The notes under the pieces are model-generated. The model was given only the letters and a program-made list of their open reading frames with translations. It was not told the origin of the DNA and made no database searches. Both the position numbers and the translations under genes were made by a program. Below are positions 1,319-15,860 of a stretch of DNA of 64,000 bases, one piece after another (the stretch's first letter is position 1; the number at the start of each line of letters is the position of its first letter). Where the stretch lies: NCBI GenBank assembly GCA_964424305.1, contig CAYRHW010000001.1, positions 71,947-135,946 of the forward strand. The letters are read 5' to 3'. Source of the DNA: an uncultured Candidatus Saccharibacteria bacterium (GTDB lineage Bacteria > Patescibacteriota > Minisyncoccia > Minisyncoccales > Staskawiczbacteraceae).

Positions 1319-1813
1319 GTGCTAATAAAATTCTCTCTAATTGCCCTTATATTTCTAACAGTTCCCCTAATAATTTTTGCTGTGGATGGGGTAGAAATTA
1401 ATACGGCGACGCTACAACAACTAGATGGAATAACAGGGGTGGGGCCGGCGATAGGCCAAAGGATAATAGATGCCAGGCCTTTTTCTTCGATTGACGATCT
1501 ATTAAGAGTGAAGGGTATTGGAGAAAAAACTTTACAAAAGATAAAAGACCAGGGGTTGGCCTATGTTGATGGTCAGATCGCGCAACCCATACTCCAAACA
1601 CCCTCTGAGGCGCCGATAGAAGCACCTTCTGCGACTCTAGCCGAGCCACTTGATATATCTCCAGCAGAAACGCCACTGCAAAATGTGGTCATCCCAATAG
1701 TTTATCCGACGGGCGTGGTGATAAATGAAATATTGCCTAGCCCAGAGGGAGCAGATGAACAAAACGAATGGATTGTCTCCACAATACAACTAATAATTTC
1801 AGCCTATTTGTGA
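1319..1813 (+). CDS. ComEA-like helix-hairpin-helix DNA-binding protein; 5' portion of a gene interrupted by the integrated element (last 13 codons are element-derived)
   Basis: N-terminal TM segment, then the ComEA HhH motif INTATLQQLDGITGVGPAIGQRIIDARPFSSIDDLLRVKGIGEKTLQKI. It ends ...VVINEILPSPEGADEQNEWI (start of a lamin-tail-domain motif), then unrelated residues and a stop. Confidence 0.85.
   Translation: MLIKFSLIALIFLTVPLIIFAVDGVEINTATLQQLDGITGVGPAIGQRIIDARPFSSIDDLLRVKGIGEKTLQKIKDQGLAYVDGQIAQPILQTPSEAPIEAPSATLAEPLDISPAETPLQNVVIPIVYPTGVVINEILPSPEGADEQNEWIVSTIQLIISAYL
1766..1773 (+). repeat. attL core (GAATGGAT)
   Basis: 8-nt identity with 15336-15343. It lies exactly where the ComEA/LTD reading frame diverges into element sequence. 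Confidence 0.6.
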
Positions 1814-1995
1814 CAACTTACCTCCCGGATAGGAATTATAGCAAAGAAAGAAATATGGTAGCCGTAGAATGAAGGAGTTAAAAGCCACCTTTTAATCGGG
1901 GTGGTTTTTTGTTCTAGCTTTTGGTATATTTATATAAAATAATGAGTTATCAACAGTTATAGTAATTTTATAAATTTACTATAAGTACCAAGTTT

Positions 1996-3348
1996 ATGAA
2001 CCCTATAAATTGGCAACAATTTGGCTTGAAGAAAAATCCTTACGACACCCTACCACTTATAGAGGGAGGAGATCTGCCCATAGATAAAGCATTCGTTGGA
2101 AGAGACGGAGAAAGGAAATTCCTTGATGGTCTTTTTTCTTCAAATAATAGAATATGTTTGACTGTCTGTGGGGGTGTTGGAGTAGGAAAAACAAGCTTAG
2201 CAAATTTTCACAAGTTTATATGGAAGTATACAAAAGAAAAATTACTTTTTTCTTTTAGGAGAGAAATTGAGGCCAACTATGACTTACTTAATAAAAAAAG
2301 TTTTTTGATAGAAATAATTGGTTCCATATTAAGAGAAATTAGATTGCTAGAACCAAACTTGTTAAAAAACGAATTATTGAAAAAACTCAATCAAATAGTT
2401 GATATTAGTCAGACCATGAGCATATCTGGTGGAGCTTCTTTCTATGGATTCGGTCTAGACGTGGGAGGAAGCAAATCACCGACAATTCCGATACAGTTAT
2501 CCGCTACGTTGCTTGAAGAACATTTTATATCTCTAGTTAAATTTATTAAAAATAATGAGATTAAATCTTTAGAATATTCTGGTTTGATAGTGCATGTAAA
2601 TAACTTTGACATAATCTTGTCGAATGAAGAAGGCATAAAAAAGGCGATTAATTTTTTTGATGAGATAAGAGATATTTTGCAAACCCCTGATGTCTATTTT
2701 TTATTTTTAGGCCCCGAAAATTTATTTAAGGACGTGATCTGTTCCCGTCAAAGAGTAAAAAGCATCTTTTATCCAACTCCATTAAAAATAAATCCTCTAT
2801 CCAAAAAAGAGATCGTAAAAGCATTTGAAGAAAGGATGGAGTTTTTAAAATCCGATGATGTCTCCTCTTACATAAAGCCCGTAGAGGATGATGTAATTTA
2901 TAAGATCTATGATTTATATAATGGAGATATCCGCTCAATAATGACAAGCACCATAGATATACTAGGACAATATTCAGATAAACTTGCGAAAGCTTTAACT
3001 ACTAATGAGGCCATGTTGCTTTTGGGGAAAGAACGCTGGGATAAGATTGAAAATGTCATGAGGCTAACTCATGAACAAAAAGAAATACTTAAATATTTAG
3101 CAAGTGCAGAAAAGTTTATCAGTCAAAAGGAAATAGCAAAAATGTTTAACAAACAAACATCAAATGTTTCTGGTTATTATTTTAAACCATTAAGAGATAA
3201 TAATATTATTGAAGAAAAGGAACGCATTAAACAAACCCCATATTATGGTTTAACATCTGATTATGTCCCCATAAAATGGTTAATAAAATCTCAAAATGAA
3301 GTTAAAAAAAGCATAGAATGTAAATCAAAACAACTAAGCTTGCTATAA
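1996..3348 (+). CDS. P-loop NTPase (AAA/ORC-Cdc6-like architecture) with C-terminal winged-helix HTH
   Basis: 450 aa; FVGRDGE...LTVCGGVGVGKTSLA Walker A; hydrophobic strand then D (GLIVHVNNFD) as candidate Walker B; C-terminal MarR-like wHTH (HEQKEILKYLASAEKFISQKEIAKMFNKQTSNVSGYYFKPL). Confidence 0.6.
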   Translation: MNPINWQQFGLKKNPYDTLPLIEGGDLPIDKAFVGRDGERKFLDGLFSSNNRICLTVCGGVGVGKTSLANFHKFIWKYTKEKLLFSFRREIEANYDLLNKKSFLIEIIGSILREIRLLEPNLLKNELLKKLNQIVDISQTMSISGGASFYGFGLDVGGSKSPTIPIQLSATLLEEHFISLVKFIKNNEIKSLEYSGLIVHVNNFDIILSNEEGIKKAINFFDEIRDILQTPDVYFLFLGPENLFKDVICSRQRVKSIFYPTPLKINPLSKKEIVKAFEERMEFLKSDDVSSYIKPVEDDVIYKIYDLYNGDIRSIMTSTIDILGQYSDKLAKALTTNEAMLLLGKERWDKIENVMRLTHEQKEILKYLASAEKFISQKEIAKMFNKQTSNVSGYYFKPLRDNNIIEEKERIKQTPYYGLTSDYVPIKWLIKSQNEVKKSIECKSKQLSLL

Positions 3349-3360
3349 AAATTTATTAAT

Positions 3361-3387
3361 AAAACAGTCTATATGTGCTGTTTTTTC
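3361..3387 (+). terminator. Rho-independent terminator candidate
   Basis: AAAACAG-N10-CTGTTTT followed by a T-run, directly after the ATPase stop. Confidence 0.45.
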
Positions 3388-3458
3388 TTGATTTTACTAT
3401 GCTTTAGCACTAAGGTTAAAATAACAACTTAATATTGAGCCTAAACCTATATTTTATA

Positions 3459-3582
3459 GGCATGGCACAAAACTCCAAGTGCATACTGAACCCGTCGTTC
3501 AGGCTCCATGCACTTGGTCTATATCCGAAAGGGTATAGGAGACGCAAGTCTCGGCCTAGCGGCGGGCTTTGTGTTATGCCGC
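3459..3582 (+). promoter_or_regulatory. Highly structured 5' leader (candidate riboswitch or cis-regulatory RNA) upstream of the secreted repeat protein
   Basis: Hand-folded helices: 10-bp CCAAGTGCAT/ATGCACTTGG (3475-3484/3508-3517) enclosing 6-bp CTGAAC/GTTCAG. 9-bp stem capped by a GAAA tetraloop (3518-3539). 5-bp GAGAC/GTCTC capped by a GCAA tetraloop (3539-3552). GCGGC/GCCGC (3559-3563/3578-3582). Ends 10 nt before the ATG at 3592. Confidence 0.5.
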
Positions 3583-3591
3583 TATAAAACT

Positions 3592-5424
3592 ATGAAAAAA
3601 TTTATCATCGCAGTCATTTTATTATTAACGCCTTTCTTTGCGTCTGCTTCCATAGATAAGAATTTATCTTATGGATTAAAAATTGACTCAGATGTTATGG
3701 AGTTGCAGGAGTTCCTAAAAGCCGATGGTTGTTATAATGGCTTTACGGGGGGGAATTTTCTGATGCTCACCCTTAAGGGTGTAAAATGTTTTCAAACAAA
3801 ATATCACGATGAAATTTCAGCTTTGGCCGGTTATTCTATAAAATCCTCTGGTTTCGTCGGCTCTGGAACAAGGACTTTTATTAATCAAAAACTTAATGAA
3901 GAACTCGCCGATTCCAATATAGATGCTAACCAAGAAGGAACAGTTGCCTGTTCTCCTTTTTGGAAATGTAGCAATTGGAGTGCTTGTGCGGGATCTCAAC
4001 AGACAAGAAGCTGTATTGATTCAAATAATTGCAAGGTTACAACTGGGAAGCCCAATGAAGCACAGGGGTGTACCACCGCTTGTACTCCGAATTGGCAGTG
4101 TACTTCCTGGGGTTCTTGTATTAACTCTCAATGGGTAAGAACCTGTAACGATTCTAATAGTTGCGGAATTACAACAGGAAAACCGAGCGAAACACAGTCC
4201 TGTACGGTTGCTTGCTCTCCTAATTGGCAATGCTCTTCGTGGAGCACCTGTGCAAATTCACAACAGACGAGAACCTGTAGTGATTCTAATAGTTGTGGGA
4301 CTATGACGGGAGAGCCAACTGAAGCACAGGTGTGTACGGTTGCTTGTAGCCCAAACTGGCAATGCAATGCATGGAGTACGTGTTCCAATTCTCAGCAAAC
4401 AAGAATTTGTAATGACGCCAATGGTTGCGGAGTTTTAACTAATAAACCGTTGATAGCACAATTTTGCACAGTTGCCTGTTCTCCTAATTGGCAATGTGGA
4501 GAATGGGGTATTTGCACAAACTCCCAGAAGGCAAGAACATGTAATGATGTCAACAATTGTGGGCTCGCCAGCGGTAAACCGAATGAAACAGATTCTTGCA
4601 TTGTATATTTTGTAGCAGATATATCCCTTGATAAATATACGCTTGCTAATAATGGTGTAGACTCTATTAAGGTCAACATAAAAACTAAGGATTCAAACGG
4701 TAATATCCTTCCCAACAAAACTGTTCAAATTACGACAGACAGTACCGTCAGCGCCACATCGGACTCTAATGGAGATATAAACACAACAATATCTACCACG
4801 GGATTACCAGGATCACGCAAACTTAAAGTTAGTGCTGATGGTTATTCGTATGATTCTAATAATTATGAGGTGATCGGAACGGGCGCAACCGCCATGGGCT
4901 CGGTTTGTTTCCCACAAACTGGTAACCTAACCAGACTTATGGCTCCCGGGAAAGATCAGGAATTACTTCAGATAGCACAATTGAGAAGTTTAGGAATAAC
5001 AAATTTGGGTTTAAAAAAGGTAAACTTTAAGGTGAGTGGTATAGATTCTACTTGGATAAGCAATATAAGGATTCAAAAATACCCACCACCTTGTAGTGAA
5101 TATTTTTGTTATCAGGGGAATATAACTGCGCCGAGTAATGCTGTGGGCACCATATCTAGTGATGGGATAATTAGTGTGGTCTTAGTAAATCCGTTGCCAA
5201 TTCGTAATGACGATCGTGTATATGTATATGCAGATTTGGCGAATCCAACCTCGCCAAGAACCGGTACGACATATACTAATGAATTTATTTCAGCGGAATT
5301 TACGGGGATGGTTGCAGGTTATACGTCAAATAGTATATCTTTTGGGGCATTTAATTGTATGAGCACAACTGATGGGTTGGGCGATCACGAAACATTTTTA
5401 AGTCAAATATTTAGGGGTAACTAA
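3592..5424 (+). CDS. Secreted protein: peptidoglycan-binding-like domain, 5 tandem Cys-rich repeats, bacterial Ig-like domain, C-terminal domain of unknown function
   Basis: Start moved to MKKFIIAVILLLTPFFASA (signal peptide); the track start at 3508 lies inside the RNA structure. PG_binding-like SDVMELQEFLKADGCYNG; repeats ACSPNWQC..W..C.NSQQTR.C.D.N.CG; Big_1-like SIKVNIKTKDSNGNILPNKTVQITTDS. Confidence 0.8.
   Translation: MKKFIIAVILLLTPFFASASIDKNLSYGLKIDSDVMELQEFLKADGCYNGFTGGNFLMLTLKGVKCFQTKYHDEISALAGYSIKSSGFVGSGTRTFINQKLNEELADSNIDANQEGTVACSPFWKCSNWSACAGSQQTRSCIDSNNCKVTTGKPNEAQGCTTACTPNWQCTSWGSCINSQWVRTCNDSNSCGITTGKPSETQSCTVACSPNWQCSSWSTCANSQQTRTCSDSNSCGTMTGEPTEAQVCTVACSPNWQCNAWSTCSNSQQTRICNDANGCGVLTNKPLIAQFCTVACSPNWQCGEWGICTNSQKARTCNDVNNCGLASGKPNETDSCIVYFVADISLDKYTLANNGVDSIKVNIKTKDSNGNILPNKTVQITTDSTVSATSDSNGDINTTISTTGLPGSRKLKVSADGYSYDSNNYEVIGTGATAMGSVCFPQTGNLTRLMAPGKDQELLQIAQLRSLGITNLGLKKVNFKVSGIDSTWISNIRIQKYPPPCSEYFCYQGNITAPSNAVGTISSDGIISVVLVNPLPIRNDDRVYVYADLANPTSPRTGTTYTNEFISAEFTGMVAGYTSNSISFGAFNCMSTTDGLGDHETFLSQIFRGN
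3946..4605 (+). repeat. Five tandem 132-bp (44-codon) coding repeats, 6 Cys each
   Basis: Repeat units ACSPFWKCSNWSACAGSQQTRSCIDSNNCKVTTGKPNEAQGCTT, ACTPNWQCTSWGSC..., ACSPNWQCSSWSTC..., ACSPNWQCNAWSTC... and ACSPNWQCGEWGIC... read directly from the translation. Confidence 0.85.
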
Positions 5425-5427
5425 ATA

Positions 5428-5745
5428 ATGAGTATATTTATAAAAGACAATTGGTTTAAAATTATAGCTACAATATTATTATTGTGGGCACTAGCAGATA
5501 ATCCTTACGGATATTATCAATTTCTAAGATGGGTTGTGGTAATAATCGCTGGCTATACTGCTTATGTCGCCTATAACAATCAGAAAATCGGTTGGGCATG
5601 GGTTTTTGGTATTGTAGCTATTCTGTTTAATCCTATTTTCCCTTTTTACCTCTCGAAGGGTAATTGGCAATTTATAGATGTGGTAGTAGCCGTGTTATTT
5701 TTAGTATCGTTATCTAAAACACAAAAACTTGAAAAAAGTAATTAA
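5428..5745 (+). CDS. Small integral membrane protein (3-4 TM)
   Basis: 105 aa and strongly hydrophobic (IIATILLLWALA, VVVIIAGYTAYVAY, WAWVFGIVAILFNPIF); 3 nt after the upstream stop. Confidence 0.65.
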   Translation: MSIFIKDNWFKIIATILLLWALADNPYGYYQFLRWVVVIIAGYTAYVAYNNQKIGWAWVFGIVAILFNPIFPFYLSKGNWQFIDVVVAVLFLVSLSKTQKLEKSN

Positions 5746-6106
5746 AATATTTTCCTTATTGTCGCTTCTATTAGTTCTTGGTGTATTGCCCATAGTCGTT
5801 GATGCTAGAAGCGGTTGTTGCTCTCATCATGGCGGAGTTTGTGGCTGTGGTTGTTGTGACGGGACTTCTCTTTCAGCGACTTGTGCCCCATACTATCCCG
5901 AGTGTAGTCGGAATGTTTATACTCCGACAACGAACACTAATTATAATCCCCCGGCCGATAACACTTATATCCCACCAGTAGTTAATAATAGTCAGGATAG
6001 TAATGCTGGAGAGAATAATGATAGTTCTGGTTGGTGGACATTAGGAATACTTGGCTTAGTTGGATATGGAATATATCGTTACGTAAAAAACAAAAATAAT
6101 AAATAA
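5729..6106 (+). CDS. Cys-rich secreted protein with C-terminal membrane anchor
   Basis: TTG start, signal peptide, SGCCSHHGGVCGCGCCDG cluster, Pro/Asn/Thr-rich linker, C-terminal TM WWTLGILGLVGYGIY. Confidence 0.6.
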   Translation: MKKVIKIFSLLSLLLVLGVLPIVVDARSGCCSHHGGVCGCGCCDGTSLSATCAPYYPECSRNVYTPTTNTNYNPPADNTYIPPVVNNSQDSNAGENNDSSGWWTLGILGLVGYGIYRYVKNKNNK

Positions 6107-6110
6107 ACTT

Positions 6111-6347
6111 ATGAAAAAAATATTACTATCAGTATTTATATTATCAATGCTATTTTTTGGTGGTTTTAATGCCGTTGATGCTAAAATTCTAAAGATAAAT
6201 GGCTATTATAAACCGAGTATCGGAAAGTACGTTCAACCATACTATAAGACCAGCCCGAATAAAACTAAAATTGATAACTATTCAACGAAAGGAAATTACA
6301 ATCCCTTTAATGGAAAGATCGGAACGATAAACCCCTATAAGTTCTAA
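6111..6347 (+). CDS. Small secreted protein
   Basis: 78 aa, signal peptide MKKILLSVFILSMLFFGGFNAVDA, Lys/Tyr/Asn-rich mature part. Confidence 0.55.
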   Translation: MKKILLSVFILSMLFFGGFNAVDAKILKINGYYKPSIGKYVQPYYKTSPNKTKIDNYSTKGNYNPFNGKIGTINPYKF

Positions 6348-6357
6348 TACTAAATCT

Positions 6358-6528
6358 ATGAGTCTCTCAAAAGAATCCATAGATGAATTTAAGCGAATCT
6401 GGAAGAAACACTTTGGTACTGATATTTCAGATGAGAAAGCTCGGGAAGATGGAGGGAGGCTTCTTCGGCTAGTAGAAATAATTTATAAACCCATGACCCA
6501 GAAAGAGTACGATATATATAGTAAGTAA
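6358..6528 (+). CDS. 56-aa hypothetical protein (paralog of 12726-12896); absent from ORF track
   Basis: ATG 6358 to TAA 6526-6528: MSLSKESIDEFKRIWKKHFGTDISDEKAREDGGRLLRLVEIIYKPMTQKEYDIYSK. About 60% identical to a second copy on the other strand; conservation at protein level supports coding. The antisense track ORF 6389-6715 is probably spurious. Confidence 0.55.
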   Translation: MSLSKESIDEFKRIWKKHFGTDISDEKAREDGGRLLRLVEIIYKPMTQKEYDIYSK

Positions 6529-6539
6529 TAAGCAAATTT

Positions 6540-7529
6540 ATGAAACAAATATCTAAGATTGTAATAACTTTATTAATTGTTTCTTTTATCGTCCCGCAAG
6601 TAGCATTGGCGTCTTGGTGGAATCCCCTTAGTTGGAATATCTGGGGTGGTATTTTCCATAAAACTGATTCTAAAACACAAATATTAGAGAATCGTGTGAA
6701 AGAGCTTGAAAACAAGTTAAATAGTCAACCCACCTCTACAACTACAAAAACTGATAATACTAAACAGTCAGTCATCACTAAACAAACAGAACCTAAGTCA
6801 GAAAACAATATTAATAAGCCAACAACAGAAACTACTAAAACAACCAACAATACACAAGCTACAACGATGAAGCTTTCGGTCTATAATTCATATATAGATT
6901 CTGCAATAAAAGCATATCAAGAAAATATCACTAACTATAATCAGATGGCGAGCTATATACAAGGCACAAAAGATGGATTGGATCGGGAAGAATCTTTGCT
7001 CTTAGAACTCAAGGCATCGGAAACCGATTCTTGGTGGAAGGGTGCTTGGCAATTAGTAATTGATAAGGCGGTTGTCCCGCCAAGAGAACGGTGTAATCAA
7101 TTTTTGGATAATTTTAATAAAAATATTCAGGCAATAAATTCAAATATTGCTATTCTTAGAAATGAAAAGGATAAAAATAATGTTTCTGCTCCAGTCAGCA
7201 TTGAACAATATATAGCGTATTTTGACAAATTGAATAGTTTGATTATCATTGATAAGTTTTCACAAGATGTAGATAGCACTTCTTTATTACTTGAACCATT
7301 TAATCAAAAGACTTTTGTCGACCTTAAGGGTGCTGTTAAAATATTTGCTGACAAACAAACGGAGCTTTACTATAAATCTATTGGCACTGCCTATGTTCCA
7401 AGTCAAAACACATACAACCAAATAAATAATTATTATGTTCCGCCAGTATTCCCCACGATTCAAGTACCACAAACAACGCACTGCACAATGATGCGTACGA
7501 TCAACGGAGCAACTATGGATTGCTATTAG
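6540..7529 (+). CDS. Secreted protein with Thr/Asn-rich linker and helical domain
   Basis: 329 aa, signal/TM IVITLLIVSFIVPQVALA, low-complexity TTTKTDNTKQ...TTETTKTTNNTQ region. Confidence 0.65.
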   Translation: MKQISKIVITLLIVSFIVPQVALASWWNPLSWNIWGGIFHKTDSKTQILENRVKELENKLNSQPTSTTTKTDNTKQSVITKQTEPKSENNINKPTTETTKTTNNTQATTMKLSVYNSYIDSAIKAYQENITNYNQMASYIQGTKDGLDREESLLLELKASETDSWWKGAWQLVIDKAVVPPRERCNQFLDNFNKNIQAINSNIAILRNEKDKNNVSAPVSIEQYIAYFDKLNSLIIIDKFSQDVDSTSLLLEPFNQKTFVDLKGAVKIFADKQTELYYKSIGTAYVPSQNTYNQINNYYVPPVFPTIQVPQTTHCTMMRTINGATMDCY

Positions 7530-7539
7530 TTTACTAAAT

Positions 7540-7562
7540 AAGCCCTTTTTGGAGGGCTTTTT
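7540..7562 (+). terminator. Rho-independent terminator
   Basis: AAGCCCT-TTTTGG-AGGGCTT followed by a T-run, 11 nt after the stop at 7529. Confidence 0.65.
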
Positions 7563-7564
7563 GG

Positions 7565-7594
7565 TTGGAAAAAACATCAAAATCGTGATATAAT
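7565..7594 (+). promoter_or_regulatory. Extended -10 promoter candidate
   Basis: TTGGAA (7565-7570), 18-nt spacer, TG-n-TATAAT (7586-7594), 33 nt upstream of the ATG at 7627. Confidence 0.4.
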
Positions 7595-7626
7595 TTAAGC
7601 GAAATTAATGAAAATTTAAGATAAAA

Positions 7627-8835
7627 ATGAGAGAGAAGTTTAAAAAACCAAAAAATAATCTAGGAGCTGACAGCTTATTTTTTAATAATCCCCTGGCATA
7701 CATAGACGAAAAAGGAAGATTTATTTATAAGGCGAGCGGTTTTTTTCGTCTCGAAAAGATATATGGAGCTTCTTATGGTATAGCCGGTGAGGTTTCTAGA
7801 CCATTAGATTTTGATACTGTATATAAGTGGCCGAACTTGAAGCGGGATGGGTACGAACTGATAAGCGAGCCGAACGAAATAACTATTTGTGGGGGTGGCA
7901 AGGTTACAAGGATTGATAATGCCTTATCTTTTAAAGATATTGAAATAAAATTTAATAATCGGAAGGATTTAGTCAATTTGTGTTCTTATATTGATGACAA
8001 GAAATCTTCACTGGAAATCTTTATCAATGTTGCCAGCGTTCTATCTGAACAAGGAGAAATCGATTTTGCAAACGAACAGAACAATTACTTAAAAATTAAG
8101 TCTGAAAAAATAAGCTCGCTTTTAAGCTTCGGGTCTACTTTTATAATAAAAAATAAATCAATGGAAGTAAAAGGCGGGGATAGATATATTTTTGAAAGCG
8201 ATGAACTAATTGATCAGCTAACCATTTCAACGCTTCTATATTTTGCCAAGAAAGAGCACATACCATCTCACAATATATTAATAGCTCTTCTTTTGGACGG
8301 ATTAAAAAAATTTCTAAGAAGTTATACAGAAAACATTGATGAGTATGAAAAAGATATATTAACAAATGAGGCGTTAGAGTTAATAAGCCTTGTTATCCTA
8401 AATAAGAATAAGAGATTTGTGTTTAATCCAAATAATAGACAATCCTTACAGCATTATTTTTTTGGAACTGGTCATCCTGTTACGACCAATAAAGGTGGCT
8501 GGATACCTAAAATTCAGGAGTATTTGAAAGATAAAAATTTAGAGAAGCATAGGTTAAAGGAGGAAGCTACTGTGGTTGAGAGCAGAATTGAGGATAAAGA
8601 TTACGATAAAATATACAGTGATTGGGGTGCTTTTTTAAGAATGGACCAATCGGCCCAGACGGCATTAATAAAAGATAAAACTAAGGATTGGCCAGCAAAA
8701 GATCGGGATATATTGTATATGCATTATTTAGAGGGAAGTACCCTTGAAGATATTGGTAAAAAATATGGTGTAAAAAAAGCCCGAATTTCTCAGATTTTAA
8801 ACAAACTAGTAAAAAAACTAGGCACTATGCATTAA
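7627..8835 (+). CDS. Protein with C-terminal sigma-70 region-4-type HTH (element-encoded regulator or sigma-like factor)
   Basis: 402 aa; C-terminus DRDILYMHYLEGSTLEDIGKKYGVKKARISQILNKLVKKL matches the region 4.2 pattern. The N-terminal ~330 aa is unrecognised. Confidence 0.65.
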   Translation: MREKFKKPKNNLGADSLFFNNPLAYIDEKGRFIYKASGFFRLEKIYGASYGIAGEVSRPLDFDTVYKWPNLKRDGYELISEPNEITICGGGKVTRIDNALSFKDIEIKFNNRKDLVNLCSYIDDKKSSLEIFINVASVLSEQGEIDFANEQNNYLKIKSEKISSLLSFGSTFIIKNKSMEVKGGDRYIFESDELIDQLTISTLLYFAKKEHIPSHNILIALLLDGLKKFLRSYTENIDEYEKDILTNEALELISLVILNKNKRFVFNPNNRQSLQHYFFGTGHPVTTNKGGWIPKIQEYLKDKNLEKHRLKEEATVVESRIEDKDYDKIYSDWGAFLRMDQSAQTALIKDKTKDWPAKDRDILYMHYLEGSTLEDIGKKYGVKKARISQILNKLVKKLGTMH

Positions 8836-8871: not shown

Positions 8872-8896
8872 GCCCCATTTATTGGGGTTTTGTTTT
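8872..8896 (+). terminator. Rho-independent terminator
   Basis: GCCCCA-TTTAT-TGGGGT followed by TTTTGTTTTG. Confidence 0.6.
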
Positions 8897-9049: not shown

Positions 9050-9325
9050 TTGAATCAGGAGAAAGTATTAACGATGAGAAAAAATAAACCTATGCAACAA
9101 TACACCGGCCAGTTTCCAAAGTACGAATTTAGCGAAACCCAAAGACTTAATCCTTGCTGGAGCTCCCTAATTTGTTTTCACGAAGTAATCAAAAACAGAA
9201 AGGCGCTGCATCCACGCTTAATCAGAAAATGGTTTTATAAATTAGTTGATAAAGATGACTATGTAGTAAAAGACAAGGATGAAGTTTTAAGCTATGCCCT
9301 AAAGTTAGCGAGAGGCGAAGCATAG
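9050..9325 (+). CDS. Hypothetical protein (true start possibly at 9074, MRKNKPMQQ)
   Basis: 91-aa ORF with no recognisable motif; coding status supported only by length and context. Confidence 0.4.
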   Translation: MNQEKVLTMRKNKPMQQYTGQFPKYEFSETQRLNPCWSSLICFHEVIKNRKALHPRLIRKWFYKLVDKDDYVVKDKDEVLSYALKLARGEA

Positions 9326-9432
9326 GGGGGGGTGAATTCCCCTAATAAAAAAGACAAAATATGCCACCAGCAGGCAGAGAAACAGAATGGCGGTAAAAGG
9401 TACATCTAAACACCCTTTCCAGCCCAAAATCT

Positions 9433-9729
9433 ATGAAATTACAAAATTTAACAATAAGTGAAATTAATGTAATACCAGTTAAACCAAACGAGGGGCTAAT
9501 TGGATTTGCCTCTTTTGTTTTAGACGAAAGGTATTATGTTGGCTCGGTTGCAATCTATACAAGATTAGATGATTTTGGTTATAGGTTAGTTTATCCAACC
9601 AAAAAGGTAGGAGATAAAAATATAAATATCTTTCACCCCATTACCCAAGAAGTTGGCGGGGTTATTGAGGAAGAAGTAATAAAAAAATTAAGTGAAATAT
9701 TTGATGAAGATTATGGACACAGAAAATAA
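9433..9729 (+). CDS. spoVG: SpoVG-family nucleic-acid-binding protein
   Basis: 98 aa; pattern I.V.PVK..EGLIGFASFVLDE.YYVGSVAIYTR.D...YRLVYPTKK....INIFHPIT matches SpoVG (MK..V.I......LKA.ASV.LD..F.V.......G..GLFV.MP). Confidence 0.8.
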   Translation: MKLQNLTISEINVIPVKPNEGLIGFASFVLDERYYVGSVAIYTRLDDFGYRLVYPTKKVGDKNINIFHPITQEVGGVIEEEVIKKLSEIFDEDYGHRK

Positions 9730-10771
9730 CAAAAAATTAAGTGAGGGACTAGAAGAGTTTGTAAAAGAGATTGCATATAATAATTTAGTTCCTACTGGTT
9801 GGGAGGTTATAAAAGGTGAACATCTTTTGAAAATGGAAATATCAAAACGAGAATTTCTGATAGATGGTCTTCTTCCATCTCAGGGGATCATCATTTTATC
9901 CGGTAACCCCGGCTGTGGTAAAAGTTGGCTGGCAATTGAGATCGCAAGGGTTATCTCTTCGGCCAGCTCTTCATTGTTCAATAAATTTGAAGCCAAAGAC
10001 GGCTCTGTACTTTATATTGATGAAGAATCAAATATTCAAGAAATGCAAAGGAGGTGGAAGGCGTTGGGAGCAGATATTCTTTCGTTTACTGATTTTACGT
10101 TCCTTCGTGGGTTTAAAATTGATAATAGAGAGGAAAGAGAAAAATTACTAGATTTTGTTAGCCACAAAAAATACTGTTTAGTTATTTTTGATAGTTTAAG
10201 AGATATCCATAGTAAGAATGAGAATGACTCCCAACAGGCGCAGGAGTTGATAGATTATTTTCGTGAACTAATAAAAATGGGCTCTACTGTATTAATTTTG
10301 CATCACAACAGAAAAGAGAGTTTTCTTAATTCTAAAGATCCTTCTCAATTATTGCGTGGCTCAACAGCTATTTTAGCGGGCCTAGATTGTTTAATTTCGG
10401 TTGAAAGCAAAAAAATAAATGACCGGGTTATTGAGTTCACTATAAGTCAACCAAAATTAAGACAGGGGAAACCAGTATCCCCATTCAAATTAAATCTAGT
10501 TGAAGAGGAGGGTAAGATAAAATTTGAGTATGTGGGAGAGATAGAAGAAGAGGCTACAAAACTTCAGAAGGCCAAAGAGGCTATACTAGAACTTCTTAAA
10601 GACGGAGAGAAATATCACGGTGAAATCGTCCAAACCCTAATCTCGCTTTACTTTGCAGAGAGAACAACCAATAGAGCCATAAAAGAACTAAAGGAAGGCA
10701 AAAATATCCAACCAAGAAAGGATGGCAAGAAGATTTATTACACTATTGGTGCCATGGTGCCAAGTGATTAG
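9692..10771 (+). CDS. RecA-fold AAA_25/RepA-like replicative ATPase with C-terminal wHTH (start may be 9713, MDTENN)
   Basis: Walker A LSGNPGCGKSWLAIEIA, Walker B VLYIDEE, VIFDSLRD, LILHHNRK. This is typical of plasmid/phage RepA/DnaB-like helicase loaders. C-terminal winged-helix-like region. Confidence 0.75.
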   Translation: MKYLMKIMDTENNKKLSEGLEEFVKEIAYNNLVPTGWEVIKGEHLLKMEISKREFLIDGLLPSQGIIILSGNPGCGKSWLAIEIARVISSASSSLFNKFEAKDGSVLYIDEESNIQEMQRRWKALGADILSFTDFTFLRGFKIDNREEREKLLDFVSHKKYCLVIFDSLRDIHSKNENDSQQAQELIDYFRELIKMGSTVLILHHNRKESFLNSKDPSQLLRGSTAILAGLDCLISVESKKINDRVIEFTISQPKLRQGKPVSPFKLNLVEEEGKIKFEYVGEIEEEATKLQKAKEAILELLKDGEKYHGEIVQTLISLYFAERTTNRAIKELKEGKNIQPRKDGKKIYYTIGAMVPSD

Positions 10772-10928
10772 TGCCAATGGCACACGTTCACCCTTAAAAC
10801 CTTCTAAAGAAAGGTGGGGATTAGTGCCAAACACCCCCTTTAGGGGGTTGGCAGTAATACCTTTCTTAGAGGGTTAAATAAATTAATTATAAAGGGCGCC
10901 CGTCCTTTAAACCAAAGGTTGGTGCCAA
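10749..10928 (+). repeat. Five GTGCCA(A/T) iteron-like repeats plus hairpins (candidate element origin or regulatory region)
   Basis: GTGCCAT 10749, GTGCCAA 10757, 10771, 10824 and 10922. GTGCCAATGGCAC is a near-palindrome (10771-10783). CCCCC-TTTA-GGGGG hairpin at 10834-10847. Confidence 0.45.
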
Positions 10929-10935
10929 ACAATAA

Positions 10936-11568
10936 ATGGAAAAAGAAATACAAAAAGAAGAGAACAAGTTATTAATTAAAAAATATACGCCAGAGAAGGC
11001 CAAAGAGTTTGTTGTGGATTGTTTTGTGCTCCCCGGAATAGATGCGAACCATAATTTAAGAATTATTGCCAATGAAATAATGCCAAAGTTTTTCAGCGAT
11101 AATAAGGAAGAACAGGAAGAGGGGCAAAAGAGAATAAATGAAATTTCCTTAAATGTTCTAAGGGCTTTTGAGACTGAAACTTATATAGGATTGATGGAGG
11201 CAGTTAGCGAACAATACAGATCTTTAGCCAAAGAACTAACCATTCAAATTATTAAAGATTACGCTTGCAAAACAAGCATAGAAAAACTTATTGCTGAGGA
11301 TGTTGTTCATTCATATATTAAGGTGCTTGATAGTTCACGAAGATTAAATAGTCAGCTTAATAGCGGAAATACAACCTCACTTTTAAATACATATATGGGC
11401 ATACTGAGTAAACAGGCAGACAGAGCCCATAGGCAATTCCTTAATGCCCTAATGACACTTAAGCAAATAAAGACTCCCTTAATTGAAATGAATATAAAAA
11501 CAAATAATGCTTTTGTTGCTCAAAACCAACAAATTAATGCAGACAAGAAAATCAATGAAGCTAAATGA
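10936..11568 (+). CDS. Hypothetical protein (helical)
   Basis: 210-aa ORF with no diagnostic motif; co-directional and adjacent to the replication module. Confidence 0.55.
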   Translation: MEKEIQKEENKLLIKKYTPEKAKEFVVDCFVLPGIDANHNLRIIANEIMPKFFSDNKEEQEEGQKRINEISLNVLRAFETETYIGLMEAVSEQYRSLAKELTIQIIKDYACKTSIEKLIAEDVVHSYIKVLDSSRRLNSQLNSGNTTSLLNTYMGILSKQADRAHRQFLNALMTLKQIKTPLIEMNIKTNNAFVAQNQQINADKKINEAK

Positions 11569-11890
11569 TTTAGGAAATAAATTATTAGTTGAGAACTGCC
11601 AAAAGATCTCTATTAATACCTTTTCCAGACAAGCAAATAAAAAACTAAAAGAGATGTTTTTATCTTCCCAATTTGAGATAACAAGCAGGAATATTGAGCT
11701 CACTACCTCTAGTGTTCATTTTGGTGGTATCAGGTATTGGTTTAAATGCCCCTTGTGCGAGAAAAAGATGGGAACCCTATTTATTCACCCCCTTAACCAA
11801 CAGGTCGGCTGTAGGGGCTGTTTAGGGCTTGAGTATAGAAAAAGAAGATATAAAGGAATGGTTGAGGGAGAGGTTATCAACACCACTTAG
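11555..11890 (+). CDS. Zinc-ribbon protein
   Basis: Start set at MKLNDLGNK (overlaps the upstream stop by 14 nt). CPLC...GCRGC four-Cys motif. Confidence 0.5.
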   Translation: MKLNDLGNKLLVENCQKISINTFSRQANKKLKEMFLSSQFEITSRNIELTTSSVHFGGIRYWFKCPLCEKKMGTLFIHPLNQQVGCRGCLGLEYRKRRYKGMVEGEVINTT

Positions 11891-12072
11891 CACATAACCA
11901 AAAAGCCCTCCGTTTTGGAGAGGACTTAGTGGGAGCTGTTAAATTGTACTTTTTATCATTTCAAATACTCCAGGATAAATCCAACTTACTACTTTAACGG
12001 AAACAAACGGAAATAAAAACAGCAGGAAAATTGTTAAAATTATTGTGTAAATTATTTTCTTGAAAGACACTT

Positions 12073-12411
12073 TTAAAACTTAAAAATAAAACCCAGTATG
12101 GCTATCACGATAAGGACAAGGATTAGATATAGCAATGGACCAAGCCAAAAGGTAAGAAAACCTACTCCTATACCCAAACCCACCTTTCCTGCTTTCTCCG
12201 CCAGACTGTCTTTCTTGTTTCTCTGTCCATTATACTGGTTGTGCTTAACATAATATCTAGTAGCCACCACCTTAAAAACATGCCTCGCCTCTTCTTCGTT
12301 CAGTCCACCTTCAATTAATTTATTTACCCATTCGGATTTGTTAGTCGGATTAAATGAATAGTCTGCAAACAACTTTTCGGTAGCAACCTTAATGTTTTCT
12401 TTTTCTTCCAT
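12073..12411 (-). CDS. Membrane-anchored hypothetical protein
   Basis: 112 aa with a C-terminal double TM (VGLGIGVGFLTFWLGPLLYLILVLIVIAILGFIF). Confidence 0.55.
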   Translation of the reverse strand: MEEKENIKVATEKLFADYSFNPTNKSEWVNKLIEGGLNEEEARHVFKVVATRYYVKHNQYNGQRNKKDSLAEKAGKVGLGIGVGFLTFWLGPLLYLILVLIVIAILGFIFKF

Positions 12412-12415
12412 AAAT

Positions 12416-12715
12416 TTATTTTTTAATCTTGGATTTGAATGGACTCATAAGGACATTACCTATCATTTGCGGTAGCGGAATAAATGCAGAGGCATAATAA
12501 ATAATAACTCCCAAAAAAGCCACTTTCCAATTTATAAATAAAATAGCTATCCACGTTCCTATGCCAATCCAATAAAAAAGTAATGTCCACTTAGGAAGAT
12601 TTGGCTCATTTGTTGGAATATCCCCAAACTTTTTAGCTTTTGCTAAATCTAAATCAAAAAGAATTATTGATAATGATAGAAAGAATAAGATGACTAACAG
12701 AATTAATATATCCAT
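12416..12715 (-). CDS. Small integral membrane protein
   Basis: 99 aa, three hydrophobic segments. Confidence 0.55.
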   Translation of the reverse strand: MDILILLVILFFLSLSIILFDLDLAKAKKFGDIPTNEPNLPKWTLLFYWIGIGTWIAILFINWKVAFLGVIIYYASAFIPLPQMIGNVLMSPFKSKIKK

Positions 12716-12725
12716 AGATTATAAA

Positions 12726-12896
12726 TTATTTACTAAACTTGTCGTATTCTTTCTGGGTCATTGGTTTATAGATTGCCTCTACCAGCTGAATAAGCTTGCT
12801 ACCACTTTCTTGAGCCTTCTCGTCTGAAATGTCTTCTCCGAATTTCCTCTTCCAGATTCGTTTAAATTCATCTAGCCGTTCTTTAGAGATTATCAT
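12726..12896 (-). CDS. 56-aa hypothetical protein (paralog of 6358-6528); absent from ORF track
   Basis: Reverse strand from ATG (12896) to TAA (12726-12728): MIISKERLDEFKRIWKRKFGEDISDEKAQESGSKLIQLVEAIYKPMTQKEYDKFSK. Confidence 0.55.
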   Translation of the reverse strand: MIISKERLDEFKRIWKRKFGEDISDEKAQESGSKLIQLVEAIYKPMTQKEYDKFSK

Positions 12897-12899
12897 AGG

Positions 12900-13061
12900 T
12901 TATTTTTTATTTTCTATTTCTTCACAAAAAAAGAACCCGAGCCAAAAATATGCAAAAATTATAAAGCATGTCCCAAAGGTGAAATAACCGTTTCCAACAC
13001 CGATTAGAGAAAATGGAGCGAGACTAATAGGAAGATATAAAATTAGATTTATAGCTTTCAT
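12900..13061 (-). CDS. 53-aa small membrane protein (tentative)
   Basis: Reverse-strand ORF MKAINLILYLPISLAPFSLIGVGNGYFTFGTCFIIFAYFWLGFFFCEEIENKK. It fills the gap between flanking co-directional genes. Confidence 0.35.
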   Translation of the reverse strand: MKAINLILYLPISLAPFSLIGVGNGYFTFGTCFIIFAYFWLGFFFCEEIENKK

Positions 13062-13065
13062 GGAT

Positions 13066-13296
13066 TTATTTGGTTTTGTGCTTCATTATCATGATGCCGA
13101 TAGCAATTAACATTGCTCCAACTGAAATAGCCATAAGAACATCTTCTGAATAATAATAGTAATTAGCGCTACCACCGAATGTATGATAAAAATTAAAGGC
13201 ATTATAAGAAAAAACCCCAATTCCTATTATTGTTAGTAACTCTCCTAAATACTTCTTGATAAATACTGTTATTTTATTCGTTGTTATTTTATCCAT
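13066..13296 (-). CDS. Small membrane protein (2 TM)
   Basis: 76 aa; LLTIIGIGVFSYNAF and AISVGAMLIAIGIMIM. Confidence 0.5.
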   Translation of the reverse strand: MDKITTNKITVFIKKYLGELLTIIGIGVFSYNAFNFYHTFGGSANYYYYSEDVLMAISVGAMLIAIGIMIMKHKTK

Positions 13297-13300
13297 ATAT

Positions 13301-13474
13301 TTATTTCTTATGTTTCTTAATAAAACTATTCAGATCTTTTCCATCAATACGAAAATGCTGGTCAGTCAACTTAAGAACCTTGAGCCTTTTGGACTCAATA
13401 TAACGATAGATAGTCTTCTTACTTACACGGAGGTAGTCAGCAACCTCTTGTATGGTTAGAAATTTGTTAGACAT
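13301..13474 (-). CDS. Excisionase-family (MerR-like) HTH DNA-binding protein
   Basis: Start set at MSNKFLTIQEVADYLRVSKKTIYRYIESKRLKVLKLTDQHFRIDGKDLNSFI, the canonical Xis-type HTH pattern. Divergent from the integrase. Confidence 0.75.
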   Translation of the reverse strand: MSNKFLTIQEVADYLRVSKKTIYRYIESKRLKVLKLTDQHFRIDGKDLNSFIKKHKK

Positions 13475-13558
13475 TAATTCAATATAATACCAATGGAAAC
13501 AACAATCAATACCTGTCCACACTTGACACGCCATCTCAACACGAGGTACAATTAAACC

Positions 13559-13664
13559 GTTGAAGATAATAACCAGATTCTATAGTTATTTATTTTATAA
13601 AACTATATAATAACTACGGGGACGGAACTGGTTATCTTCAACAAATAACTATAGATTCCGTCCC
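13559..13664. promoter_or_regulatory. Interleaved inverted repeats in the xis-like/integrase divergent intergenic region
   Basis: A GTTGAAGATAATAACCAG (13559-13576) vs A' CTGGTTATCTTCAAC (13628-13642). B TCTATAGTTATTT (13579-13591) vs B' AAATAACTATAGA (13643-13655). C GGGACGGAA (13619-13627) vs C' TTCCGTCCC (13656-13664). Confidence 0.5.
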
Positions 13665-13681
13665 TTTTAGTTTATAAAAAT

Positions 13682-15355
13682 ATGAAAACAACATTACAAA
13701 ACTATAATATAGGTCAAGGAGTGACCCTCAAAACTAAAAGAGCGGCGATTTATATTAGATGCTCATCAGATGAAGCTGGGAAGGAAGGATACAGCCCTCA
13801 AACACAACGAGATAAAACAATGGATTTTATCAGAGCAAACAATTACCAAATAAATGAAAGATTTATTTATACAGATATTGGCTGCTCAGGGAGCACGGAC
13901 AAAAGACCAGACTTCCAAAGATTTTTAAAAGACGCTAAAAACAAAGAATTTGATGTGGCTGTCGTTTATAGAATGGATAGGTTTTTTAGAAACCTGAGGC
14001 TGCTTTTAAACACCGTGGCCGAGCTCAGAGACATCGGAATAGAGTTTAAGTCAGTAACAGAGCCCTTTGATACTTCAACTCCCACAGGAAGGGCAATGTT
14101 TGCGAATGCGGGTGTCTTTGCAGAGTGGATGAGAGAGGTTGGGTTAGAATCAAGGAATGAGGGGATGGTGAAAGCAATGAAAGAAGGTAAATATTTAGGC
14201 GGAACCCCTCCCTATGGATGTAAAATTAACAAAGAAACACAAAAATTAGAGATTGAAAAAAACGAAATTAAGGTAGTAAAGATGATATTTGGATGGCTTG
14301 TGGACGAAGGGCTGAGCGAGTATAAAATACAGCAAAGGTTAAATACAATGAAAGTTCCTACTAAGTTTGATTTAGTGGGAAGGAAAAAGAAAACTGGGAG
14401 TACGTGCTGGTGGAATAGAAAAACCGTAGACAGGGTATTGAGCAATGAAGTATACACAGGAACATTCTACTACAGAAAATATTTACATCCTGGCAGGACA
14501 AGAAATGAAAATAATTTTAGACCCAAGGAGGATTGGATAAAGGTTGAAGATAAGTCTCTAATGGTTATATCTAGGGAAAGATTTGAAAGAGGACAAAAAC
14601 AATTAAAAAAGAACAAAGAACAGGCGGCTAGAAACACAAAAGAATTATACGCCCTACAACATAAAATAGTCTGTGGTGTGGATGGTTACAGATACCAGTG
14701 CGGGATTAGGCGCTACCAATCAACAAAAACTGGCAATAAAAGATCAACTAAATATTACTTTTGTGTGGGTACAAGATCATATATGGCCGCCAGAAGGTGC
14801 CACGTCCCGACAATAAGTGAATCCAGGATAATACCACCCGTGTGGAATAAATTAAAAGAAATTTTTCTCAACCCAGAAATAGTTCTAAAAGAAATTGAGA
14901 CCTGTAAAAACCAAAATGCCGGGAGTAGTGTGTCTGATCGGCTAGAGATTGTTAAAAAAGAGCTTGCCTCCCAAGAAGAAAAGAAAGAAAGATATGCTGA
15001 ATTATATGCAGAGAAATCTATCAATAAAAATTTCTATGATAAAAAAATAAAAGAATGCACCGATAAAGCTGAAAAAATGCAAGAAGAGGGAATAAGGCTG
15101 GGAAGACTTGCAACATCTGAAGACGAGAAAAAAACTCAATTAATGTCTATAATAGAACTTTATGGGCGATTGAAAAATGGACTTGAAAATGCTACCTATG
15201 AGCTAAAGAGAGAAATTCTCCAGGACCTAGTAGAAAGGGTTGTAAAAACCGATAATAAGCTTGAAATAGAATTCCTTATACCGTTATTAGGAGAAAGGGA
15301 CCAGGAGAATCAGTCGGGTTGTAGTGACAACCCAAGAATGGATAGAAATATATAA
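13682..15355 (+). CDS. Large serine recombinase (integrase)
   Basis: 557 aa. N-terminal resolvase domain AAIYIRCSSDEAGKEGYSPQTQRD with catalytic Ser and VVYRMDRFFRN; recombinase domain; Cys-rich zinc ribbon (C..DGYRYQC...YYFC); C-terminal coiled coil. The stop lies 12 nt beyond the attR core. Confidence 0.95.
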   Translation: MKTTLQNYNIGQGVTLKTKRAAIYIRCSSDEAGKEGYSPQTQRDKTMDFIRANNYQINERFIYTDIGCSGSTDKRPDFQRFLKDAKNKEFDVAVVYRMDRFFRNLRLLLNTVAELRDIGIEFKSVTEPFDTSTPTGRAMFANAGVFAEWMREVGLESRNEGMVKAMKEGKYLGGTPPYGCKINKETQKLEIEKNEIKVVKMIFGWLVDEGLSEYKIQQRLNTMKVPTKFDLVGRKKKTGSTCWWNRKTVDRVLSNEVYTGTFYYRKYLHPGRTRNENNFRPKEDWIKVEDKSLMVISRERFERGQKQLKKNKEQAARNTKELYALQHKIVCGVDGYRYQCGIRRYQSTKTGNKRSTKYYFCVGTRSYMAARRCHVPTISESRIIPPVWNKLKEIFLNPEIVLKEIETCKNQNAGSSVSDRLEIVKKELASQEEKKERYAELYAEKSINKNFYDKKIKECTDKAEKMQEEGIRLGRLATSEDEKKTQLMSIIELYGRLKNGLENATYELKREILQDLVERVVKTDNKLEIEFLIPLLGERDQENQSGCSDNPRMDRNI

Positions 15356-15860
15356 TCAAAACCCGACTGCAGTAGATTTATCTGGATGGAAAATATCTGA
15401 CACCGAAGGAAGTAGCAATGTCTACACCTTCCCAATTGGTTCAAAAATACAAAGCAATGGTTATTTAGTCCTGGGAAGACCCGCGACAAAGATTGTTTTG
15501 AATAACGCCAAAGACGGCCTAATAATTAAAAACCCAGCGGGGGTAATATCAGATGAAGTTAGCTACACGAAAGCCCCAACAAATCAATCATATAATAGGC
15601 TAAATTCTGTTTGGGCTTGGAGTAAGACCTTGACTCCTGCCTCAAAAAATATTATCTCTACAGAAAGCGGGGGAAGCACCGATATCGCCTCCCAAGAAAC
15701 CGAAACCATTGGTGAAGAGGCCCTATTGGCATCCCTAGAAAAAGGAATCCCAGAAAAGAAAAACTTCGCCCCTACCCTCTTATTCGGAATTATTGTTTCT
15801 CTATTTTTAGTAATATCTTTTTACTTTTTAAAAACAAAATTAACCAATAAAAATCTATGA
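15324..15860 (+). CDS. Lamin-tail-domain (LTD) protein with C-terminal TM anchor; 3' portion of the interrupted comEA-LTD gene
   Basis: ...QEWIEIYNQNPTAVDLSGWKISDTEGSSNVYTFP...GYLVLGR is the LTD signature. The GTG start in the track is probably fortuitous. C-terminal TM LLFGIIVSLFLVISFYFL. Confidence 0.8.
   Translation: MTTQEWIEIYNQNPTAVDLSGWKISDTEGSSNVYTFPIGSKIQSNGYLVLGRPATKIVLNNAKDGLIIKNPAGVISDEVSYTKAPTNQSYNRLNSVWAWSKTLTPASKNIISTESGGSTDIASQETETIGEEALLASLEKGIPEKKNFAPTLLFGIIVSLFLVISFYFLKTKLTNKNL
15336..15343 (+). repeat. attR core (GAATGGAT)
   Basis: Identical to 1766-1773; same codon phase (GAA TGG AT.) in the LTD reading frame. Confidence 0.6.

Follow-up and report, generated by a model that had tools for sequence, protein, structure and literature searches.

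The window analyzed here is a 64,000-nucleotide stretch of DNA (positions 71,947 to 135,946 of contig CAYRHW010000001.1, GenBank assembly GCA_964424305.1) from an uncultured bacterium that is deposited as Candidatus Saccharibacteria and placed by GTDB in the family Staskawiczbacteraceae of the Patescibacteriota. Close to its left end we observe a gene for a protein with a helix-hairpin-helix (HhH) domain and a lamin tail domain (LTD), which lies in two parts separated by 13,570 bp (1774-15343, + strand) with the features of an integrated mobile element, and with a large serine recombinase (LSR) gene at the right end. The 5′ part of the host gene (1319-1773, +) provides codons 1-151 plus 2 nt, and encodes a transmembrane (TM) or signal segment, a ComEA-like HhH domain, a linker, and the first LTD strand; as integrated, its open reading frame (ORF) runs to 1813 (+), with the last 12 codons encoded by the element. 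The 3′ part (15344-15860, +) encodes the remaining LTD, a linker, and a C-terminal TM anchor, and its stop overlaps the start of yebC (15857). The GC content of the element is about 0.33-0.37, compared with about 0.40-0.43 in the flanks.

A first interpretation made from the letters alone (the sequence-only reading) had proposed that this element divides the gene at a short shared core and that its removal would rejoin the two halves in frame. The octamer GAATGGAT is indeed present at both junctions (1766-1773 and 15336-15343) with the coordinates given in that reading, and in the same codon phase (GAA TGG AT) in the window sequence. The left ORF (1319-1813, 164 aa) reads ...NEILPSPEGADEQNEWI, with NEWI as its last host residues, and then continues into unrelated codons and a stop as described, except that these codons number 12 and not 13; the right ORF (15324-15860, 178 aa) starts within element DNA and reads MTTQEWIEIYNQN... 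(QEWIEIYNQN). Since GAATGGAT occurs four times in the 64 kb when both strands are counted, the octamer alone is not significant, and the case depends on its context. Deletion of 1774-15343 (13,570 bp) leaves 972 nt, i.e., the predicted single ORF of 323 codons plus a stop, and the rejoined protein gives one continuous LTD match (PF00932, residues 132-227, E 2.7e-19, 70 bits with a cut-off of 34.3) that spans the joint at residues 151/152 and is obtained after rejoining only, in agreement with the proposal that the joined halves form an LTD. The rejoined protein also contains an HHH_3 domain (PF12836, E 4.7e-16, above cut-off). With a profile of intact orthologues, the match of the left piece ended at position 149 and that of the right piece began at position 145, and a 34-nt degenerate pattern covering both junction types identified these two sites only in the window, with 0 expected from shuffles. 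The reconstructed junction-spanning sequences are ...GATGAACAAAACGAATGGATAGAAATATATAATC... for attB and ...GTGACAACCCAAGAATGGATTGTCTCCACAATAC... for attP. The structural claim, that an LSR element divides an HhH+LTD gene and that exact excision restores its frame, therefore holds at the sequence level.

Our search for the undivided gene identified 501 homologues of the rejoined protein at E<=1e-10 from Ca. Staskawiczbacteria and other Parcubacteria, including hundreds of intact orthologues of 310-330 aa, and among the 120 of these 501 matches that were listed nearly all are 290-390 aa long with both HhH and LTD. Thirteen orthologues align co-linearly with the rejoined protein, with residues E150, W151, I152, E153, N156, and N158 at the joint invariant or nearly so, and the LTD motif N-E-[WF]-[IV]-E-[IL]-x-N is invariant in orthologues. 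A close relative of the window genome (L023, GCA_964395515.1; RuvB 95.5%, RuvC 87%, and YebC 84% identical) contains an empty site, reading GAATGGATAGAAAT, where ruvB, an intact 327-aa gene, yebC, ruvC, a penicillin-binding protein (PBP) gene, dnaN, and dnaA follow one another with nothing inserted. This is the same order as in the window, where the split gene is flanked by genes for RuvB (306-1316), YebC (15857-16579), RuvC (16583-17056), PBP (17413-19626), DnaN (19667-20791), and DnaA (21011-22372). Two of the outcomes that the sequence-only reading had named as speaking against it are separate ComEA and LTD genes in related genomes, and homologues all lacking the fused architecture. The empty site in L023, together with the finding that the fused HhH+LTD protein is the norm, excludes both of these outcomes.

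Three further features of this setting were observed. The HhH+LTD protein is only about 60% identical to its L023 counterpart (P0003; 61% over the full length), set against 84% to 95.5% for YebC, RuvC, and RuvB in the same pair of genomes; it thus evolves much faster than its neighbors, consistent with a surface-exposed protein under diversifying pressure. The motif targeted by the integrase is invariant despite this rapid divergence. In addition, the insertion site is located about 7 kb from dnaA/dnaN and from the rpmH-rnpA-yidC cluster, i.e., near the replication origin, and the same is true of L004, L006, and L023.

An error of assembly, in which the element was wrongly joined to the chromosome and the split gene is an artifact, must be considered, since the element is fragmented in other assemblies, with breaks at window positions 2545, 12572/12671, and 12993. 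These breaks, however, fall inside the element and away from the attachment sites, and the fragments are collinear with the window (a look-up of a SpoVG-like protein of the element led only to such fragments). The right attachment site, attR, is crossed at 100% identity by two other, independent assemblies, the two junctions share one codon of a single gene, and at least seven unrelated genomes have this architecture as well. We therefore regard a chimeric assembly as extremely improbable.

The integrase gene (13682-15355, +) encodes 557 aa in its integrated form, with Resolvase (PF00239, E 3.8e-33), Recombinase (PF07508, E 4.8e-19), and Zn-ribbon (PF13408, 26.2 bits with a cut-off of 25.3) domains and a PHROG match at E 6e-100. 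An alignment of 25 homologues shows no variation at the catalytic residues S28, R26, D99, R100, and R103, and among solved structures the SPbeta integrase is the best match (residues 63-520), with the catalytic domain of the TP901-1 integrase matched at E 6.7e-18. The AlphaFold2 (AF2) model of a 56% identical homologue of 711 aa (P0142) has a mean predicted local distance difference test score (pLDDT) of 79.6 and long helices at residues 385-508, and its best fold matches are the SPbeta, Bxb1, and phiC31 integrases. As judged from its sequence, the integrase is a complete LSR, with every testable feature of that group present, and such an enzyme would be expected to integrate by attP x attB recombination and to use a directionality factor for excision. 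The closest database relative of the integrase is P0123 (80% identical), encoded at locus L011 on a 383-kb Staskawiczbacteria contig. The C-terminal end of P0123 diverges (…NRVPNTPKRRKWPGATVGL), yet the tblastn match reaches residue 554, and the divergent end, near 11500-11660 of L011, is probably a frameshift due either to decay of this copy or to sequencing error.

Joining the ends of the element rebuilds an attP that consists of a left half-site arm, TTGTAGTGACAA (15319-15330, +), a 12-nt spacer, CCCAAGAATGGA (15331-15342), and a right half-site arm, TTGTCTCCACAA (1773-1784, +), which is an imperfect inverted repeat of the left arm (10/12). This layout of arm, 12 nt, and arm is typical of serine-integrase sites, and the reconstructed attP has the short length expected of them. 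The same arm geometry is present in L003 and in L019, the latter a complete 8.6-kb relative with both halves of the host gene on one 8,872-bp contig. Identity between attB and attP is limited to 8 bp, i.e., the cores GAATGGAT of attL (1766-1773, +) and attR (15336-15343, +). Strand exchange would take place at the central GA (1766-1767 and 15336-15337), because GA lies at the center of the spacer and of the site's symmetry, because the GA at the corresponding position of L019 has mismatches between attL and attR on either side, and because GA is kept in the variant cores GAATTTAT (Doudnabacteria) and GAATCTAC (L001). In L019, crossover at GA rebuilds the canonical ..SENEWIEL.. motif, and the core co-varies with host sequence, as with GAATTTAT and EFIE in Doudnabacteria.

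The LSR gene was said in the sequence-only reading to end at the right junction; it does reach this junction, but it crosses it, and its last three codons and stop (15353-15355) are host DNA. Integration thus exchanges the last 32 codons of the gene for three host codons and a stop, and we find these 32 codons, CLHNTTNNFSLFVTTYLPDRNYSKERNMVAVE, at the other end of the element (1774-1872, +, with the TGA at 1870-1872), in frame with 13682-15343 when the element is circular. The integrase of the circular form has 586 aa, as opposed to 557 aa when integrated. The same two forms are seen among the 120 integrase homologues listed: about 45 end 0-7 residues past the crossover (...D-[NS]-[RP]-R-M-D), with host codons supplying the stop (e.g., GAATGGATTGA), and about 15 unintegrated ones extend further, with a sequence C-[PRL]-H-N-x-T-x-x-F-x-[IML]-F-V-T-T-..-L-P.. 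to which the detached tail in the window corresponds. The loci with the long form (L001/L002 and L003) have no LTD gene beside int. Comparison of L001 with L003 gave a dN/dS of 0.24 for the first 35 tail codons and 0.12 for the core; in the remainder of the 155-aa tail 73/116 residues are identical and synonymous sites are saturated. In silico circularization of L019 likewise gave an in-frame int ORF of 674 aa. The tail is under purifying selection, and the continuity of the int frame across attP is not due to chance.

A beta-hairpin at residues 523-540 closes the canonical LSR fold in the AF2 model of P0142, the residues encoded by attP lie in a disordered linker (541-567, pLDDT <50), and beyond this linker there is a strand, a helix, and a folded domain (614-710) with a DUF5655 match at or just below the Pfam threshold. 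By this model the enzyme would be complete in both states, with integration removing an add-on module. The extension past attP, of about 155 aa (residues ~560-711) and folded as alpha/beta in the AF2 model, is present in the unintegrated integrases P0127, P0129, P0142, and P0195, and in L019 a DUF5655-like domain (147-614) is left behind at the opposite end of the element after integration. One tentative and rather unlikely proposal is that the cutting and re-making of int serves as a built-in state sensor, where the tailed enzyme of the free form favors or licenses integration and the tail-less enzyme differs in activity, stability, or directionality. The C-terminal module in this proposal would have 32 aa in the window element and about 155 aa, with the DUF5655-like domain, in relatives.

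The insertion at this codon is not unique to the window. Eight further sets of loci have an LTD fragment directly at the 3′ end of the integrase gene, and this fragment begins at profile position 145/146, i.e., at the E-[W/F]-I-E codon. These sets are L004/L005 in Staskawiczbacteria, L006/L007/L014 in Nealsonbacteria, L008/L009/L012 in Doudnabacteria, and the single loci L011, L013, L015, L016, and L021 (an IMG/VR contig). Downstream synteny (yebC, PBP, dnaN, dnaA, and usually ruvC) is kept where the contig is long enough (L004, L006/L007, and L008). The integrase of L019 (38% identity) uses the same LTD motif in the opposite orientation, and overall the LSRs sharing the LTD site are 33-80% identical. 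Our scan of species-representative genomes identified 10 integrase loci with two peptide patterns and is not a census. The target was probably selected as an almost invariant stretch of DNA that is present in nearly every host genome. In a further IMG/VR contig (L022, integrase 52% identical) the insertion is in a larger, multi-domain LTD protein (4223-6010), i.e., in a different LTD gene, which argues for specificity for the LTD motif rather than for one gene.

The cargo of these elements varies. Locus L004 contains Prim-Pol, methylase, and large terminase genes (phrog_2, E 1.7e-27), and both L006 and L008 contain methylase and helicase genes, while the attP-form contigs L003 and L001 contain, respectively, TraG/VirD4-like plus UvrD-like genes and HepT/MNT toxin-antitoxin genes. 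The window element has a module at 8.9-11.9 kb in common with L011, and a gene for an AAA_25 ATPase in common with L018 and L019.

Considering all of this evidence, we favor, at a probability of roughly 0.85, the reading that the window contains a 13.57-kb integrative element that was inserted by its LSR into a conserved gene for an HhH (ComEA-like) and LTD surface protein in a Ca. Staskawiczbacteria-like Parcubacteria genome. Under this reading, integration would occur by attP x attB exchange at GA, and the free element would replicate or persist in a plasmid-like manner by means of its AAA_25 helicase, and not as a virion. Excision would depend on the integrase and a directionality factor, most plausibly the HTH_17 protein encoded divergently from int, and its outcome would be an intact host gene together with an integrase gene of full length. 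Expression of int may be controlled by a promoter-like site and a terminator-like hairpin in its leader, and transcription from int may enter the LTD fragment and yebC-ruvC, since no terminator lies between them. For the host, insertion would remove the LTD and the C-terminal anchor and leave an anchored HhH fragment; because the 5′ fragment keeps a membrane anchor and the whole HhH domain, integration may trim the surface protein rather than abolish it. The element may gain further in that impaired DNA uptake would guard against its removal by transformation.

Several observations count against this reading and are given together here. The attL of the element was observed in the window only. 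When the contigs of JGI metagenomes were searched with the 34-nt four-way att pattern, we found attR only (on a 2.5-kb contig) and neither attB nor attP, and a collection of 5.8 billion proteins contained no 323-aa or 586-aa form, only split forms at 100% identity. The attP-form contigs L001-L003 have no terminal overlap, meaning that their circularity is not demonstrable. The label ComEA, as used in the sequence-only reading, is supported by the ComEA-like HhH domain, but the NCBIfam ComEA models score below their cut-offs (TIGR01259, 53 bits versus 152; TIGR00426, 41.5 versus 53.1); a role of the split gene in DNA uptake is therefore a matter of inference. The HTH_17 (excisionase/AlpA-like) protein (13301-13534, - strand) is the sole candidate for a regulator or recombination directionality factor, and its assignment as such is a guess. 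With 32 aa, the tail in the window is short, and it is not needed to complete the canonical LSR fold. Finally, the 77% identical integrase of L004 sits beside a terminase, and the virion genes of phages of the Candidate Phyla Radiation (CPR) may be too divergent for detection.

The first group of these observations bears on whether the element still moves. A stranded, immobile remnant, with the host gene permanently truncated and becoming a pseudogene, would account for the finding that the integrated form alone is seen in three assemblies, for the absence of any match to virion or conjugation genes among the element ORFs, and for the apparently frameshifted int end of the relative P0123 (L011). 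Against such a fixed insertion, the integrase ORF, the detached 32-codon tail ORF and its terminator, both att arms, and both halves of the host gene are all undecayed, and the lack of attB and attP contigs is weak evidence because assemblies report the majority state. We consider it doubtful that the insertion is fixed. As a separate point, we asked if the contig breaks in other assemblies reflect heterogeneity in presence and absence at the att sites, and rejected this, the breaks being inside the element.

The same intact parts could also serve a regulatory switch of the kind known as active lysogeny, which the sequence-only reading had raised as a possibility, where a cue would drive reversible excision, the HhH+LTD gene would be restored, and the element would then re-integrate without killing the cell. 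This is compatible with both gene halves keeping every invariant residue, with the intact integrase, tail ORF, and terminator, and with the presence of an excisionase-like HTH_17 gene and a structured int leader, and there are LSR precedents in comK, spsM, and sigK. However, no excised or rejoined junction is present in the assemblies searched; the HhH domain is kept in the 5′ fragment, so that there may be little to switch; and elements with quite different cargo, one of them bearing a terminase, use the same site, which fits the selfish choice of a safe harbor better than a switch adapted to the host. A regulated switch has no support from the assembled data, which are compatible with low-level excision, and we judge it improbable.

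Whether the favored integrative element is plasmid-like or viral depends largely on its gene content. In a small temperate phage or a phage satellite, the unannotated ORFs would encode or hijack a virion and the element would spread by transduction. In line with this, the closest integrase outside this population (77% identical, L004/L021) has a primase and a large terminase (phrog_2, E 1.7e-27) as neighbors, its contig is listed as viral in IMG/VR, and many ORFs of the window element are without annotation. In contrast, for no ORF in 1774-15343 did we find a Pfam or PHROGs match to a terminase, portal, capsid (head), or tail protein, i.e., the virion and packaging genes that define a prophage were not found in the window element. 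Only one protein, a P-loop NTPase, has the size of a terminase or portal, and it has no terminase match; for a tailed phage, a length of 13.6 kb is small; and the attP-form relatives carry TraG/VirD4-like, UvrD-like, and toxin-antitoxin genes. A phage or satellite is thus unlikely in our view. The element would rather be a plasmid-like integrative element than a prophage, although this is uncertain because of the terminase beside the 77% identical integrase.

Detailed examination of the element from left to right showed that a terminator-like hairpin (1880-1909, +; a stem of 12 bp and then a U run, dG -16.7 kcal/mol, z -3.5) begins 8 nt past the TGA of the reconstituted integrase ORF, and in the integrated state it would also halt read-through from the truncated host gene. 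It is followed by the gene for the P-loop NTPase (1996-3348, +; 450 aa) with a C-terminal winged-helix-like region, for which scans of Pfam, PHROGs, PADLOC, and NCBIfam gave no family assignment. Exact-protein look-ups of this NTPase and of the 164-aa left fragment returned no record, probably because start calls differ. A LOOT RNA (Rfam RF03000; 3438-3552, +; 75.9 bits with a gathering score of 46.4) heads a run of genes for secreted and membrane proteins. The first of these (3508-5424, +) encodes a 638-aa secreted protein with about six Cys-rich repeats of ~44 aa and four Cys each (..C.PNWQC..W..C.NSQQTR.C.D.N.CG..), and contains a 132-nt tandem repeat at 4137-4431; domain scans gave no family match beyond a weak match to the Ig-like Big_1 after the repeats, and translation probably begins at the MKKF... 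codon, about 84 nt further downstream. The small membrane and secreted proteins that follow (5428-7529, +) are encoded at 5428-5745 (DUF6804), 5729-6106 (Cys-rich), 6111-6347, and 6540-7529. Further downstream are genes encoding a 402-aa protein with a C-terminal sigma-70 region 4 domain (7627-8835, +), a SpoVG-like small protein (9433-9729, +) that shares 72% identity with the corresponding protein of the related element L011, and the AAA_25 ATPase of RepA/DnaB-like helicase type (9692-10771, +), homologues of which adjoin the integrase in L018 and L019, and which is likely the replication protein of the element. PADLOC found no defense system among the element ORFs.

The int leader (13523-13668, +) contains a promoter-like TTGACA-18-TACAAT (13523-13552) and a GC-rich hairpin with a U run (~13617-13668). 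This hairpin ends 14 nt upstream of the int ATG, the fold has a z of -3.1, several inverted repeats are present, and no Rfam family matches 13523-13680. The leader is a possible attenuator or operator region.

Elements that split genes by means of an LSR are known from other bacteria. In Listeria, the A118 and phi10403S-type prophages in comK also place an LSR element inside a competence-related coding sequence, with a short core and with exact excision restoring the ORF. They differ from the window element in that the latter has no virion genes, a Parcubacteria host belonging to the CPR, a surface HhH+LTD protein and not a regulator as its target, an attP inside the integrase ORF, and no regulated excision seen. 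SPbeta (SprA/SprB) in spsM and skin (SpoIVCA) in sigK of Bacillus similarly interrupt genes by an LSR with the potential for reconstitution, and the SPbeta integrase is the closest to the window integrase in both sequence and fold among solved structures. The excisions of SPbeta and skin are developmental, occur in the mother cell, and need a known directionality factor, whereas sporulation plays no part here and none of the element ORFs was identified as a SprB-like factor. The likeness to A118, SPbeta, and skin drawn in the sequence-only reading is therefore sound as to mechanism, but does not extend to the type of element, in which no terminase, portal, capsid, or tail was matched.

An att site within the integrase gene has parallels among tyrosine recombinases. 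SSV-type archaeal integrases, which belong to this family, are split by integration. In the Myxococcus phage Mx8, attP lies inside int and integration makes a new 3′ end (PMC6070905). In these systems, as in the window element, the C-terminus of the integrase is changed by integration; Mx8 and SSV use tyrosine recombinases and tRNA-type targets, while the window element uses a serine recombinase, with the crossover in a predicted disordered linker past the complete fold. Since the Mx8 and SSV families are tyrosine recombinases by definition, the likeness is one of analogy and not of membership.

With regard to the target, clusters of LSRs have been reported to share one conserved target site, and LSR targets to be enriched in competence genes (Durrant et al. 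2022, PMC10083194). Our findings resemble that survey, which was of isolate genomes, in that distantly related LSRs converge on one conserved coding site in a competence-related target. A conflict between mobile elements and transformation (chromosomal curing) has also been described, with pneumococcal prophages in comYC and transposons in comEC (PMC12637031). As in those cases, insertion into DNA-uptake machinery could shield the element from deletion by transformation. By inference, the balance of cost and benefit may differ in CPR bacteria, as they are thought to rely on DNA uptake for nucleotides. The theme of mobile elements in DNA-uptake genes would then extend to organisms thought to depend on uptake, where the conflict between element and host should be sharper.

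In an incomplete search of the literature we found no report that describes this CPR clade, an LSR with the LTD motif as its target, or a serine-integrase gene that contains attP. What is known is the LSR element that splits a gene, and what is new is the host group, the target, and the attP-inside-int layout. This layout offers a natural experiment on the effect of a C-terminal extension on the directionality of a serine integrase, and the state sensor, if true, would be a form of directionality control in which a separate directionality factor is not the sole means. To our knowledge, there are at present almost no genetic tools for CPR bacteria. The integrase, attP, and attB described here make up a sequence-defined integration system whose attB motif hardly varies across hundreds of Parcubacteria genomes, a plausible start for such tools. 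Together with the specialization of the whole clade on one LTD codon, the state sensor would, again if true, provide a ready-made toolkit of attB, attP, and integrase for these intractable bacteria.

Two minor observations concern the wider distribution of the clade and its cargo. A few integrases of this clade are also found in bins labeled Nanoarchaeota, Nitrososphaerota, Atribacteria, or Methanomethylicia (P0172, P0181, L017, and L020), labels that may be binning errors on short contigs or may reflect a real spread outside the Patescibacteria. The LOOT RNA is also present in L006 (7431-7544, -), L011 (4359-4479, -), L015 (5415-5536, -), and L019 (3179-3302, +), with scores of 68-92 bits, and in all loci it is located upstream of genes for small membrane or secreted proteins, which links this orphan RNA to mobile elements of a defined class in Parcubacteria hosts.

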